Shown here piece by piece: positions 12,293 through 63,674 of a stretch of 64,000 nucleotides of DNA. The notes beneath the pieces are model-generated. The model did no database searches. It was not told the DNA's origin and saw nothing but the letters and a program-made list of their open reading frames with translations. Made by a program: the position numbers and the translations under genes. The first letter of the stretch is position 1; every line of letters starts with the position of its first letter. Source of the DNA: a virus; the IMG/VR virus record IMGVR_UViG_3300045988_108162, positions 12,467 to 76,466 of that record, one strand, 5' to 3'.

Positions 12293-12504
12293 CCGTAGAA
12301 GAATTAGCTAATAAAAGATACGGTGGCGAATTTGTTTTCATGCTTGATCATTTGGAAGGTGTAACAAGATTCGTTTTTGAATGTTTCGATCCCAGACCTG
12401 ATCACGAAGGTAAAAATACTTATATGGTTTCCTATTTTGATAAGCGCATCCGTAGAAGAGACGTAGTAGATGTGCCGTGTTATATGAATATTTTGCCAAA
12501 ATAA
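12289..12504 (+). CDS. Hypothetical protein
   Basis: 71-aa ORF coupled to the upstream gene. Confidence 0.45.
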   Translation: MTVEELANKRYGGEFVFMLDHLEGVTRFVFECFDPRPDHEGKNTYMVSYFDKRIRRRDVVDVPCYMNILPK

Positions 12505-50589: not shown

Positions 50590-51252
50590 TTAATCCCATC
50601 CTCCAGTAGTGTACAAAGATACATCTTCCTCCTCTACGTTTACACCTTTAATAGCCTGTAGAAGTTTTTTCTTTGTCTCCCGGCACATATTGTAACCATA
50701 TCCTTTATACCGATATGAGCGCTCCCATGTGCTTACTGGAAAAGGAATATTTTCGTCAATGACCAGCCTCTTCATATGAAGATGTTCGAAGAATTTCTCA
50801 TGATAGAGTAGTTTGTACTCGTATGCTACTATGCTTGCGGATGAGAATGGAAAATAATCATCTTCTTTTTCTTCGTATTTGGGCTCCTTATAGTAAGCCA
50901 TTTTTGTCACAGTAAAATCGAAGCTCCTAAGAATCTCTTTCGGCTTTCCAAACTCTGACTCTATGAACTCTATCCATACCTTTTCTCCCTCTTTCTGGAA
51001 CGCACATACCTTCTCATTTCTGTACTTAAATTTCCATCCTTCTTTCTGATGTTTTTCATCATTGAACGAATCAATAGCCTCCTGAAAATCGCTTTCACTT
51101 TCAAAGAAAATATCAATGTCTTTTACTCTTTCTCCGGAAAGGATATTTTTAAAACATCCACCAGCTATGAATCCTTTGTGGCCTTCCATATACTTGTCAA
51201 GCCATCTTATTTGCCAGAAATTATCTGGAGTATCTATTACAAAATTATTCAT
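50590..51252 (-). CDS. Minimal nucleotidyltransferase-fold (Pol-beta-like) protein
   Basis: GGCFKNILSGERVKDIDIFF matches the hG[GS]...DhD pattern. A third acidic residue probably lies in RSFDFT. Confidence 0.5.
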   Translation of the reverse strand: MNNFVIDTPDNFWQIRWLDKYMEGHKGFIAGGCFKNILSGERVKDIDIFFESESDFQEAIDSFNDEKHQKEGWKFKYRNEKVCAFQKEGEKVWIEFIESEFGKPKEILRSFDFTVTKMAYYKEPKYEEKEDDYFPFSSASIVAYEYKLLYHEKFFEHLHMKRLVIDENIPFPVSTWERSYRYKGYGYNMCRETKKKLLQAIKGVNVEEEDVSLYTTGGWD

Positions 51253-61174: not shown

Positions 61175-61352
61175 AATCTTTCGTTTTATTATCTACAAAC
61201 TTATCTATATCGTCTCTTATTCTTTTTAGCACTCCGGCTATAATTGTCGGCATTTCTCCTCCGGTACGGTTCAGAGTTTCTATCACCCCGTCAATCTTAC
61301 CCATTTGACGCCATAAGAAATTGGCGTCTTTCGCATTAAATTCCCCCATCAT
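61155..61352 (-). CDS. Hypothetical protein
   Basis: 65-aa ORF. Confidence 0.4.
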   Translation of the reverse strand: MMGEFNAKDANFLWRQMGKIDGVIETLNRTGGEMPTIIAGVLKRIRDDIDKFVDNKTKDYENIQE

Positions 61353-61584
61353 GTCTTATTTTACAGTAAACAACTTGCTTTTTTAAGCACCAGTCTTGCG
61401 ATTCTGAGAGTGAACACCGTCCTGTGTTGTTAAAAAATATACAATCTTTGCAGAACATAACAGGCTCTTCGTCGTCACTAACTACTTTGACCTCATACTC
61501 TATGCCATACAATTTTAATCTAAATACATCCCCTGCTTCTTTAGAAGACAAATCCATGTTCGGACCGAATGTTATTACTTCCAT
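61336..61584 (-). CDS. Hypothetical Cys-containing protein
   Basis: 82-aa ORF. Confidence 0.45.
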   Translation of the reverse strand: MEVITFGPNMDLSSKEAGDVFRLKLYGIEYEVKVVSDDEEPVMFCKDCIFFNNTGRCSLSESQDWCLKKQVVYCKIRHDGGI

Positions 61585-61604
61585 ATAATTATGTTTTATT
61601 GTTT

Positions 61605-61698
61605 GTGAGATGCCCAGAATCGAACCAGGACCGGCACATACGCACCGGCACGCCGCGTCATCCCTCTATGATACAGAAATAGGCATGTCTATCCTCAC
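61605..61698 (-). tRNA. tRNA-like element A (about 93 nt, type-II-like length); canonical T arm but a non-canonical acceptor stem
   Basis: In minus-strand sense the T arm reads CCUGG-UUCGAUU-CUGGG, followed by CAUCUCAC. The 5' partner GUGAG(G)AU pairs with it only if one G bulges. It sits in a 170-nt gap between minus-strand genes. Confidence 0.4.
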
Positions 61699-61757
61699 GA
61701 ACCGACATGCCAAAACCCAAAACTTAATTTGATGAATAAAATAGATTAACAAAAATA

Positions 61758-62072
61758 CTATTCTAATTCTTTTATAATATCTTTCACAATATTCAGCCTC
61801 ACCTCCTTCGTTTCTGGACTAAGACAACCAAACCACCCATAAAACGTTCTTGTTTCCTCTGGTTCTGTGGCCATACTTATCTTCTCCTCCAATTCCGGGA
61901 AATATATTCTCACCATTTCGTCTGAACTAAACTCATATATATTTTTATGTGTTTTGAAATACATAAACACTACATTTCTTAACGCAACACATATGTATTC
62001 CCCATCCTCTAACCTATCAATCATCTCATATACCTTTTTCCATATGAATAATCGCTCTTCTTTTGTAAACAT
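61758..62072 (-). CDS. Hypothetical protein
   Basis: 104-aa ORF. Confidence 0.5.
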   Translation of the reverse strand: MFTKEERLFIWKKVYEMIDRLEDGEYICVALRNVVFMYFKTHKNIYEFSSDEMVRIYFPELEEKISMATEPEETRTFYGWFGCLSPETKEVRLNIVKDIIKELE

Positions 62073-62086
62073 ATCCTTCTTTATTT

Positions 62087-62428
62087 TTATGGTATTATTT
62101 GACTGTATGCAGACTTTTCCATGTACACAACACTATGTTCCTGTCCAAGTATTTTCTTTGCTGCTTCTTTCTTTATCGCGCAATATCTCCCTGTACGATA
62201 CGGATTCTTTTGATCTGATCCATCCTCGACTTCGATAATAAAACAACCTCCGTCATCTATTATCTTTTTGCAATTGTCACATATTTCTCCCGTGCATATA
62301 TGATGCGGCGCCTGCCCTTTGATGTTATTCCCTAATAAAGCAATCCCCATCTCTTCGCCACATATCATGCAGACTTCTATAGACGGATTCAATCCGTGTT
62401 CTGGATGTAATGTAATACCATCTTTCAT
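62087..62428 (-). CDS. Zn-ribbon-like protein
   Basis: 113 aa, with CMICG...CDNC. Confidence 0.5.
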   Translation of the reverse strand: MKDGITLHPEHGLNPSIEVCMICGEEMGIALLGNNIKGQAPHHICTGEICDNCKKIIDDGGCFIIEVEDGSDQKNPYRTGRYCAIKKEAAKKILGQEHSVVYMEKSAYSQIIP

Positions 62429-62829
62429 TTTCTTTCCTCCTTCATTAATTCTATTATAAACTTTTTATCTTGTTCCCACAATGGCAGCCCTTCTTTTACT
62501 GTGTATGCCACTGTTTCCCTCTCTCCTATTAATCGCACGGCAATCTCTCTTGCTTTCAAGTCATCCTCCTCATGCGATTTATTTATTAAATCATAGGCAC
62601 ATGATTCCACCTTTTGCCTTTCGATTATTATCGAACCCATTAACTCGCTTATATACGATCCTAAAAACGATAAGACATTAATAGCTTTCCCAATATCATT
62701 TGAAATAGCACTTGCTAAATACATCTTATCCATATACTCCGGCAAAGCCTCGTATGCCGTTTCTATGTTTTTATACTGATTTTCGTTTACCTCCCTTTTA
62801 ATCAGTTCTTCAAATTCTTCTTTTAACAT
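62425..62829 (-). CDS. Hypothetical protein
   Basis: 134-aa ORF. Confidence 0.5.
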   Translation of the reverse strand: MLKEEFEELIKREVNENQYKNIETAYEALPEYMDKMYLASAISNDIGKAINVLSFLGSYISELMGSIIIERQKVESCAYDLINKSHEEDDLKAREIAVRLIGERETVAYTVKEGLPLWEQDKKFIIELMKEERK

Positions 62830-62852
62830 GTTCTTCCCTATTTTAATGTTGT

Positions 62853-62925
62853 GTGAGATCGCCGGAATCGAACCAGCCTACCGCACCATGAATCCCATAA
62901 AGCAAATGCTCCGATCTTCGCAGAC
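62853..62925 (-). tRNA. tRNA-like element B; same conserved 3' module as A (GGUUCGAUUCCGGC-GAUCUCAC), 5' half poorly defined
   Basis: T arm GCUGG-UUCGAUU-CCGGC pairs with one G-U wobble. The best 5' acceptor candidate, GAAGAUC, pairs at only 5 of 7 positions. It sits in a 225-nt intergenic gap. Confidence 0.3.
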
Positions 62926-63053
62926 GGGAGCATTCTGTCTAAAGCATAAGAAAATTAATGAAGAAATTTTTCTCACTTACGCCATAGCATCTAAAATAGC
63001 TATCAGCACTATTTCTATGACAAACATAATAGAAAATATCTTAAATGCCTTTT

Positions 63054-63380
63054 TCATATCGCTATCTCCTCCTTCTTCTTTATGTTTATAGTTCTTCTAT
63101 ATAGGACCTCTCCGGTCGTAATATTCTGTGCGCTTACACTAATACGAACACAGTCCTTTAACCAACTCGGTCTGTGTTTAAGCAATTCTTTAGCACTCGT
63201 TCTTAATATCATCTCTTTGGCATCTGATACCGGCATAGACCTGTTGCTTATTAGTCTACTACTTTTCGAACCTGTAGAAGATACCCAATTTATCCAAATA
63301 TAATGTATTGTTCTTTCCATCTTTTTTCTTTTTACGTTCCACAATAAACTGTCCTGGCTCTGCTCCGACCTACGTTCCAC
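63054..63380 (-). CDS. Hypothetical protein
   Basis: 108-aa ORF. Confidence 0.5.
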   Translation of the reverse strand: MERRSEQSQDSLLWNVKRKKMERTIHYIWINWVSSTGSKSSRLISNRSMPVSDAKEMILRTSAKELLKHRPSWLKDCVRISVSAQNITTGEVLYRRTINIKKKEEIAI

Positions 63381-63395
63381 CTACAACCGCAGGCC

Positions 63396-63674
63396 TTAGC
63401 CCAAGGCGCCGCCTACTCCCCCCTCTATGGCAGCCTGTTCGTACCTACAAAGCCAGTCTCCATCTACACAACTATCACTACGCGATAATAAACATTTATC
63501 CTTATAACAATCATAAAAAATACACCTATCACAACTGTAATCCTTAACGTCTACACAGCTAACTACCTTAGCATATACTATACCATCACTGCCTTCTATT
63601 CCTTTCACCCCAAAAATAGAACCTTCTACCTCCTTACTCAAATCTAAGTCAGGCGCAAAATCATATACGTTCAT
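63396..63674 (-). CDS. Hypothetical Cys-rich protein
   Basis: 92 aa. It is the first gene of the minus-strand module and has a GC-rich 3' end. Confidence 0.5.
   Translation of the reverse strand: MNVYDFAPDLDLSKEVEGSIFGVKGIEGSDGIVYAKVVSCVDVKDYSCDRCIFYDCYKDKCLLSRSDSCVDGDWLCRYEQAAIEGGVGGALG

Follow-up and report, generated by a model that had tools for sequence, protein, structure and literature searches.

We analysed a 64,000-nt stretch of viral DNA (IMG/VR record IMGVR_UViG_3300045988_108162, positions 12,467 to 76,466; hereafter the window) and, precisely, two short elements, A and B, which occupy gaps on its minus strand between small open reading frames (ORFs) that form a long co-directional array, as an earlier note on this DNA had correctly placed them. 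We can describe A and B with high confidence as miniature tRNA-like folds without an anticodon arm, each being part of a composite module that is repeated in the array. In this module a hairpin is followed by a short spacer, the tRNA-like core, an A-rich segment of 20-26 nt and a start codon, and the core has a 6-7-bp acceptor helix that stacks on a canonical T arm, together with a D-loop-like linker containing GG, a discriminator C and, in some copies, an arm capped by a tetraloop. Comparison of related sequences shows a conserved fold whose pairing is under selection; the case is a comparative one, thermodynamics alone being unconvincing. A and B are not decoding tRNAs. As to their role, we tentatively favour the reading that the modules would serve, by their likeness to tRNA, as punctuation in a polycistronic early transcript, where RNase P and RNase Z would cut it. 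Over its last 3.5 kb the window shares 93% identity with the end of crAssE-Sib (GenBank OR575929, a record that spells the name 'csAssE-Sib'), a 151-kb epsilon crAss-like phage of the human gut, in which the counterparts of A and B are found at ~148.6 kb and ~149.8 kb, respectively, both on the minus strand.

The two elements share a 3' module, GGTTCGATTC-N5-ATCTCAC, which has exactly two matches in the window, both on the minus strand (61605-61626 and 62853-62874); the chance expectation is none, with matches in 0/100 shuffles. In both A and B the 3' end consists of a canonical T arm, GG-UUCGAUU-C, followed by xAUCUCA-C, and the T arms, which the earlier note had also recognised, are well formed (Table 1). 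That note had seen no clean 7-bp acceptor partner for either tail. In fact, the partner exists, with 7/7 pairs in B and 6/7 in A, and it was overlooked because only 13 nt (B) or 29 nt (A) separate it from the T stem downstream, where a real tRNA has ~41 nt. We considered as a site any T loop with a fully paired T stem and at least 6/7 acceptor pairs within 6-75 nt, and with this descriptor the 64 kb contained two sites only, A and B, with one partner position each; a relaxed descriptor returned noise (~30 sites vs 28.8 in shuffles). In both elements, as in a tRNA, the T arm has a GG-UUCRAnY-C loop and stacks on the acceptor, which is of 6-7 bp (7 bp in a tRNA) and has 1:72 unpaired in A. A more distant partner for the B acceptor, GUGAGA at ~62970, 120 nt upstream, was rejected: A is without an equivalent, and in one related locus (L034; L numbers are our locus labels) it changes to GUAAUA with no compensation.

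The hairpins that precede the cores had been reported with 8-bp stems, and both stems are real, with coordinates that had to be moved by 1-2 nt. Their '14-nt loops', instead, are not open, since each folds into a 4-bp apical stem with a GNRA tetraloop, a closure that gains 4.3 (A) and 5.9 (B) kcal/mol. Natural variants of the hairpin apex keep both the pairing and the GNRA loop (GUGA, GCGA, GAGA). The B hairpin is present in the minimum free energy (MFE) fold, and its stem variants keep pairing, as its apex variants keep pairing and GNRA; in the A hairpin 100% of the cells are paired across 41 variants.

Table 1. Coordinates of the modules and of other features (window positions, except for element C).
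Feature	Position	Strand	Description
B upstream hairpin	62905-62934	-	8-bp stem AAUGCUCC/GGAGCAUU; 1x1 C.C mismatch; 4-bp apical stem GUCU/AGAU; GCGA (GNRA) tetraloop
B spacer	62898-62904	-	UGCUUUA, 7 nt, hairpin to core; RNase P site predicted, by analogy, at its 3' end
B tRNA-like core	62853-62897	-	45 nt; without anticodon arm and without encoded CCA
B acceptor 5' strand	62891-62897	-	UGGGAUU, pairs 7/7 with GAUCUCA
B D-loop-like linker	62878-62890	-	CAUGGUGCGGUAG, 13 nt
B T arm	62861-62877	-	GCUGG-UUCGAUU-CCGGC
B acceptor 3' strand	62854-62860	-	GAUCUCA
B discriminator	62853	-	C
B A-rich spacer	62830-62852	-	23 nt, up to start codon (62827-62829) of the 134-aa ORF
A upstream hairpin	61682-61711	-	8-bp stem GGCAUGUC/GACAUGCC; 1x1 G.A mismatch; 4-bp apical stem GUUC/GGAU; GUGA (GNRA) tetraloop
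A spacer	61666-61681	-	UAUUUCUGUAUCAUAG, 16 nt
A tRNA-like core	61605-61665	-	61 nt
A acceptor 5' strand	61659-61665	-	AGGGAUG, pairs 6/7 with CAUCUCA; A.A mismatch at 1:72
A linker	61650-61658	-	ACGCGGCGU
A extra arm	61630-61649	-	8 bp, GCCGGUGC-GUAU-GUGCCGGU, GUAU tetraloop; gone in variants L041 and L074
A T arm	61613-61629	-	CCUGG-UUCGAUU-CUGGG
A acceptor 3' strand	61606-61612	-	CAUCUCA
A discriminator	61605	-	C
A A-rich spacer	61585-61604	-	20 nt, up to start codon (61582-61584) of the 82-aa ORF
Element C (crAssE-Sib, locus L161)	~509-572 (core); ~509-640 (with hairpin)	-	found with the descriptor
Nucleotidyltransferase-like protein	50590-51252	-	220 aa; same gene block, 10 kb downstream of A

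Scanning IMG/VR for the 3' module returned at least 120 contigs, from which, the window included, at least 95 A-type and at least 103 B-type copies were recovered, usually both per contig. Among the matches listed, there were 42 distinct A and 33 distinct B sequences, and the A-B distance was usually ~854 or ~1249 nt, and also 504 and 2209 nt. When the 31 pairs of the A structure were evaluated over 41 distinct sequences, 99.1% of the cells were paired, vs 27-51% with the 3' partners slid by 1-3 columns; a shuffle control is uninformative in this case, because the changes in A are all one-sided transitions of the wobble type. As for single alleles, 29/35 of the stem variants keep pairing, vs 40-58% under a neutral model (the value depends on the transition bias), and the pooled P for pairing-preserving alleles ranges from 5e-7 to 6e-3. 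The nucleotide diversity of the elements (0.03-0.06) is about that of the third codon positions of neighbouring ORFs (0.05-0.09), which points to selection on pairing and not on sequence. Pairing is also kept by the B acceptor variants UGAGAUU (L171) and UGGGGUU. Between A and B the differences are double-sided, being C-G vs G-C at T-stem 49:65 and G-C vs U-G at 7:66, and involving 7/8 of the hairpin pairs, and the hairpin apex is conserved as GUYY-GNGA-RGAU. Covariation supports the fold: stem substitutions mostly keep pairing, and both paralogues and orthologues show compensatory changes. Rearranged copies were observed too. The A element of L013 is without its hairpin, deleted into the upstream ORF, and those of L041 and L074 are without the extra arm, deleted between GCCGGT repeats; a duplicated A hairpin was seen among the IMG/VR loci, and in one contig a B/A chimera, fused at the T loop that both have in common, has a broken T stem.

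Run on the whole genome of crAssE-Sib, the descriptor returned annotated tRNAs with fitting T loops, a YrlA-like RNA (see below) and an unannotated third copy, element C, which has the orientation of B and, on the circular map, is upstream of it by 1.8-2.3 kb, just past the window end. Element C, which was found in at least 35 IMG/VR loci and is partly overlaid by the coding sequence (CDS) WOZ57218.1, reads UGGUUGU, a 32-nt arm region, UCCGG-UUCGAUU-CCGGA, GCAACCU, C, and then 23 A-rich nt and the ATG. Across 19 distinct variants all the cells are paired both in the T stem (95/95, with a compensatory change from C-G to U-A) and in the inner arm (76/76, with three pair types at one position). 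The hairpin apex, GUAC-NNNN-GAAC, is loosely like that of A and B, with a loop that reads ACAA in 11 variants and fits GNRA in the other 8.

Relatives outside this lineage were sought by pattern scans of viral and metagenomic contigs, from which A and B sequences were excluded, and the diverse cores were compared by the descriptor scan and a manual parse. The loci L035/L144, L169 and L126/L128 are syntenic, with a gene for a Cas4-like nuclease and a 153-175-aa protein ending in ...QLGAxKP(V), and they show the same succession of a 9-10-bp hairpin, a tRNA-like core and ~25 nt before an ATG; in L035 and L126 there is no gap between the hairpin and position 1, and across the syntenic set the gap is 0 or 2 nt. 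The T stems of these orthologues (GGUGG/CCACC vs UUUGG/CCAAA), as well as their extra arms and hairpin stems, differ yet are paired. On its own the L126 element adopts a mini-cloverleaf fold (z = -2.3), in which tetraloops replace the anticodon loop. Over 14 distinct members, 4-5 pair types and zero mismatches occur at the T-stem positions 49:65, 50:64 and 51:63, position 7:66 covaries (G-C, U-G, G-U, U-A) and is mismatched in three, and 1:72 is unpaired in 11/14. Two observations concern the surroundings of these loci: ~40 nt downstream of the tRNA-like element of L126 (3415-3490, minus strand) ARAGORN reports a 'tRNA-???' with a 2-nt anticodon, which may be a tRNA with an abnormal anticodon loop, and in L125 (13650-13860, minus strand) two tandem T-arm elements, neither of which is called by ARAGORN, follow a gene with an acidic C-terminal tail.

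Bacterial genomes were scanned with a pattern having a gap of 12-42 nt, with full-length tRNAs outside its reach. The scan gave 14 matches, 12 of which occur by chance in coding DNA with broken T stems, one in a phage fragment of a Veillonella metagenome-assembled genome (MAG) and one in Salibacter halophilus (Bacteroidota; NZ_WACR01000016.1, L160 1972-2024); none overlapped a tRNA. The Salibacter element is a 52-nt anticodon-less element situated between tRNA-Ala and 23S rRNA in an rRNA operon, and has an acceptor helix, a D-like hairpin, a T arm and A.A at 1:72.

Several known classes of RNA were compared with A and B and discarded. The possibility, put forward in the earlier note, of tRNAs with odd acceptor stems is rejected, given that the anticodon arm is absent: an anticodon loop is missing, the acceptor and the T stem of B are only 13 nt apart, and the extra arm of A has a 4-nt loop and is dispensed with in L041 and L074. 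ARAGORN called 0 tRNA or tmRNA genes in the window, no Rfam family reached its gathering threshold, and the tRNA model RF00005 was unmatched on A and B even at E<=10. The published annotation of crAssE-Sib was made with RAST and tRNAscan-SE and reports six tRNAs (PMC11054128); these sit at 6.7-7.0 kb and 72.8-73.0 kb, and at the counterparts of A and B, in this 93%-identical sequence, the annotation has neither a tRNAscan-SE call nor any other RNA. A tmRNA was excluded in that ARAGORN found none, the tag region and the pseudoknots are absent, the discriminator is C and CCA is absent; permissive Rfam matches to tmRNA cover the 17-nt T arm only, with 9.8-12.4 bits vs gathering scores of 47-84. 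With the tRNA-like domain of tmRNA the elements share the acceptor helix and T arm, the reduced D loop, the absence of an anticodon arm and, in A and B, a G.U at 3:70; they differ from it (A73, CCA end) in the discriminator C and in the lack of CCA, and 3:70 is A-U in many family members. The tRNA-like structures at the 3' termini of plant RNA virus genomes, whose acceptor arm is pseudoknotted and which end in CCA and are aminoacylated, were set aside as well, the elements being internal to a DNA phage genome, with a plain acceptor helix and CCA absent. Finally, the upstream hairpins are not intrinsic terminators, which combine a GC-rich hairpin with a U tract: no U tract follows them, and terminator-like sites in 61300-63400 were 0. 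Matches resembling sigma-70 promoters near A and B were at the level of shuffled background.

We now return to the favoured reading, the punctuation of a transcript. RNase P, RNase Z and CCA-adding enzymes recognise a tRNA by the minihelix of its acceptor and T arm (PMC4919922, PMC4919913), and because a minihelix with an elbow is recognised by processing enzymes, the modules would act as punctuation; the GG-containing linker could provide the D-loop side of that elbow. Cleavage by RNase P would fall on the 5' side of the core, so that the upstream mRNA would end close to a protective hairpin, and a 3' tRNA-processing nuclease would act just behind the discriminator and free the downstream cistron with a short, A-rich, unstructured leader. 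A tRNA-like RNA of 45-64 nt would be released in this way, to which CCA might be added by a host enzyme or by the mini nucleotidyltransferase of the phage. The placement of the modules fits this scheme: A, B and C belong to one array, all are intergenic and co-oriented with the genes, and each lies 20-26 nt before an ATG with a hairpin upstream. The Salibacter element would fit the same logic, an rRNA operon being a setting where processing is expected.

If this is true, crAss-like and other phages would cut and stabilise their polycistronic transcripts through tRNA mimicry and host tRNA-processing enzymes, and the Salibacter element hints at the same device in the host phylum. We did not find a published description of such phage tRNA-mimic modules in the literature on phages and crAss-like phages; the principle is known elsewhere. 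The elements are missed by tRNA finders and by Rfam, and GenBank overlays them with probably spurious hypothetical proteins. Since epsilon crAss-like phages are abundant in the gut and uncultured, the elements, together with the mini CCA-type enzyme, Ro60 and the YrlA-like RNA, offer an entry to their RNA biology. A bolder proposal, which we consider unlikely, is that of an undescribed and widespread class of phage RNA with a counterpart in Bacteroidota rRNA operons, which would both punctuate transcripts and yield a small RNA completed by the mini CCA-adding enzyme, serving as a decoy for defence toxins aimed at tRNA acceptor ends or as a Y-like partner of Ro60.

A number of points weigh against punctuation. 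We infer transcription through the modules, cleavage and CCA addition alike from the analysis of the fold and its position. The hairpin is 16 nt (A) or 7 nt (B) from the predicted cleavage site, hence not adjacent to it. The strict GGUUCGAUUC T loop and the GRGAU/AUCUC acceptor go beyond the known needs of RNase P, and could reflect a specific protein partner. In the distant members the AUCUCAC tail, and for some also GRGAU, was fixed in the search patterns, so that conservation of the tail is there by construction and the sample is biased. Some variants have a G.A mismatch at 7:66; these, like the hairpin-less L013 and the arm-less L041 and L074, imply that the parts in question are dispensable or that the copies are defective. 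Thermodynamic support is weak, with core z-scores of -0.34 (A) and 0.02 (B): the B acceptor helix is outside its MFE fold, and so is the T arm in A, in C and in the Salibacter element.

Similar devices are known in other systems. In phage T7, RNase III hairpins between cistrons direct cleavage by a host endonuclease, after which the upstream RNA ends in a stabilising hairpin, an inter-cistron role like that proposed here; the nuclease and the fold differ, a long imperfect hairpin taking the place of a tRNA mimic. Phage T4 produces stable RNAs, 'species 1 and 2', with tRNA-like ends, maturation by the tRNA machinery and no known function, which by description are larger (~120-140 nt) and lie inside a tRNA gene cluster. 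The 'tRNA punctuation' principle of mitochondria is a related processing signal. RNase P and RNase Z process the tRNA-like structures of MALAT1 and MEN-beta and the t-elements of plant mitochondria (PMC4919922). Like A and B, t-elements, MALAT1 mascRNA and MEN-beta have a non-decoding tRNA-shaped fold inside a longer transcript at the boundary of a unit, and such a fold at such a boundary is what we found here, co-transcription being assumed; MALAT1 also has a stabilising structure immediately upstream of its tRNA-like element, as the hairpin is here. Those systems are eukaryotic or organellar, whereas in this case we deal with the operon of a DNA phage, with B wholly without an anticodon arm and with cleavage that is predicted.

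Y RNAs deserve a separate comparison. At least one YrlA, that of Mycobacterium smegmatis, is an RNase P substrate to which CCA is added; in YrlA RNAs as a class the parts follow the permuted order Ro motif, V, T, closed acceptor loop and D, and their genes are <4 kb from rsr on the same strand (PMC4201824). The YrlA family (RF02553) has in common with our elements a T arm, a D-like region and an anticodon-less acceptor helix, and it occurs in Ro60-encoding phages, as is the lineage studied here. A and B are nevertheless not of this class, as their order is the normal one of a tRNA (acceptor 5' strand, D-like linker, T arm, acceptor 3' strand) with open ends, and in 61400-63200 the RF02553 model gave no match at E<=10. 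The rsr gene of crAssE-Sib occupies 73091-74725 on the plus strand, and A, B and C, being ~75 kb away on the other strand, do not share the <4-kb same-strand position of YrlA. With respect to the Ro motif GNCGAAN0-1G, which Y RNAs carry close to their 5' end, the B apex (GCGAAG) is one N short, the A apex is GUGAGG and that of C is mostly ACAAG.

These comparisons bear on the main rival to punctuation, i.e. that the elements act as free tRNA-mimic small RNAs, being decoys or ligands for tRNA-binding proteins (host defence toxins acting on tRNA acceptor ends, the mini nucleotidyltransferase, modification enzymes) or a non-permuted Y-like partner of Ro60. We judge it rather doubtful. In its favour, the phage encodes Ro60, a PNK/phosphatase, an NrnA-like enzyme and a CCA-adding-type enzyme; bacterial Y RNAs possess anticodon-less tRNA-like domains, YrlA and Yrn1 differ in topology, and a T arm is present in YrlB (PMC4201824). 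Moreover, the B apex is near the Ro-associated motif, the T loop and the acceptor are conserved above the need of a mere cleavage signal, and three copies per genome fit a dosage or decoy role. What counts against it is that the YrlA model matches neither A nor B, that a separate YrlA-like RNA already adjoins rsr while A, B and C are far from it on the opposite strand, that the apexes GUGA of A and ACAA of most C are unlike the Ro motif, that an own promoter or terminator was not detected near A and B, and that the constant placement just before a start codon suggests a role in cis. Since a released RNA could carry such a function, this explanation is compatible with processing. The possibility that the elements are decaying tRNA genes which lost the anticodon arm and are presently functionless is highly improbable. 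The 5' half of B, UGGGAUU-CA-UGGUGCGGUAGG, does look like an acceptor strand and D-loop region fused to a T arm, as by an internal deletion; deletion variants arise readily, and the nucleotide diversity equals that of synonymous sites. On the other hand, stem substitutions keep pairing far above the neutral expectation, three paralogues and the orthologues of unrelated phages keep the fold via fully compensatory changes, and the position relative to start codons is fixed in at least 120 contigs.

The earlier note had also considered tRNA 3' fragments kept as attachment (att) or recombination sites, that is, DNA-level elements bounding exchangeable cassettes. This would predict a bacterial tRNA gene ending in GGTTCGATTCCGGCGATCTCAC(CA), or in the A or C equivalents. 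The gene content between B and A varies, as the A-B distances given above show, that just downstream of A is mosaic among related phages (nucleotide diversity, pi = 0.29), and the B/A chimera is joined at the T loop; together with the deletion variants, this shows that the copies do recombine, but recombination at 22-bp repeats is an expected by-product. Every copy comes with a 5' acceptor strand that matches it, and its stems covary through compensatory substitutions, features that matter only in RNA and so argue for selection on the RNA fold; the three copies differ where an integrase core would need shared sequence. No integrase or recombinase was detected by Pfam among the ten ORFs neighbouring A and B, and crAssE-Sib has no integration module according to its authors (PMC11054128). 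We thus regard att sites as very unlikely. Least credible of all, to the point of being nearly dismissed, is a regulatory switch in which the hairpin loop would pair with the 3' tail in competition with the acceptor helix. The complementarity noticed earlier is literally present (GUGAG(G)AU/AUCUCAC in A, AGAUC/GAUCU in B), and the 3' half of the loop resembles the acceptor 5' strand. Shuffled loops, however, do as well or better in 851/5000 cases for A (17%) and 521/5000 for B (10%), the pairing register differs between A and B, there is none in L035 and L126, L013 is entirely without the hairpin, and both partners are held in stabler local helices. A loop-tail pseudoknot is rejected on the same grounds, and the idea of pseudoknotted tRNA-like RNAs was right in spirit, as far as the tRNA-like part is concerned, with the pseudoknot left out.

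The possible partner enzyme named above is encoded by the ORF at 50590-51252, which is 97% identical to crAssE-Sib WOZ57379.1, annotated as polyA polymerase/CCA-adding enzyme. Sequence evidence is weak for this ORF: its profile matches are PHROG 1614 nucleotidyltransferase (E=1.5e-8) and the PolyA_pol head domain (E=0.044), and a sequence search of the PDB was empty. An alignment-based AlphaFold2 (AF2) model had a predicted local distance difference test (pLDDT) score of 74.9 overall and ~90 over residues 1-160, and its best 32 Foldseek matches in the PDB were without exception class II enzymes that add A, CC or CCA, or poly(A) polymerase, the top one being 1vfg_A (E=3e-5). From this model, the protein, which has a head and a neck and is without a body or tail domain, is predicted to be a miniature class II nucleotidyltransferase-like protein of the CCA-adding type. 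In public assemblies its homologues are often called as 311 aa, with precomputed PF26128, a family that our own Pfam search did not return. An encoded CCA is absent in all the elements and in the two phage tRNAs of which the 3' flanks were read, and the nucleotidyltransferase is possibly linked to A and B. Phage enzymes of the CCA-adding type are usually read as tRNA-repair factors (PMC7824862).

In crAssE-Sib the Ro60-related gene rsr has a YrlA-like RNA ~390 nt upstream on the same strand (Rfam 28.5 bits, E=0.0024, below the gathering score), in which T, acceptor-loop and D follow in the proper order; the genome also encodes the PNK/phosphatase and the NrnA-like enzyme mentioned above. Two atypical tRNAs (Tyr and Lys, with mismatched acceptor ends) also precede the Ro60 gene (crAssE-Sib 72560-74725, L162 22560-24725), and the YrlA-like RNA and these tRNAs are each preceded by a repeated GGUGAUGG/GGUGAGG leader, in a cluster located among structural genes. 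In the unrelated contigs that carry distant elements no Ro60 or nucleotidyltransferase gene was seen in the short stretches examined, which is uninformative.

As regards the gene array, the ten ORFs around A and B have no Pfam matches and match only PHROGs of unknown function. The GenBank CDS WOZ57404.1 (52 aa, hypothetical protein; crAssE-Sib 148558-148716, L001 4093-4251) runs across element A and was probably called in error. Two ORFs, one of 82 aa downstream of A (61336-61584, minus strand) and one of 92 aa upstream of B (63396-63674, minus strand), are paralogues, with 36% identity (E=3e-7) and conserved Cys pairs in common, and the 82-aa gene is swapped for other genes in many related phages. 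As for the host, the tail proteins of crAssE-Sib have Bacteroidetes-associated carbohydrate-binding domains. Elements C and B are also carried by L154 (NZ_DXLG01000138.1, 3.9 kb), a contig binned with a 'Veillonella sp.' MAG that is evidently a piece of an epsilon crAss-like phage genome and gives at most a weak hint to the host. Finally, the most conserved segment of the region is an AU-rich stretch at 61711-61757 (minus strand), just upstream of the A hairpin, with pi = 0.006, below that of any nearby codon position. The stretches upstream of the A and B hairpins have a YUUCAUYAAWUU-like motif in common, and the conserved one at 61711-61757 could be a promoter or a protein-binding site.

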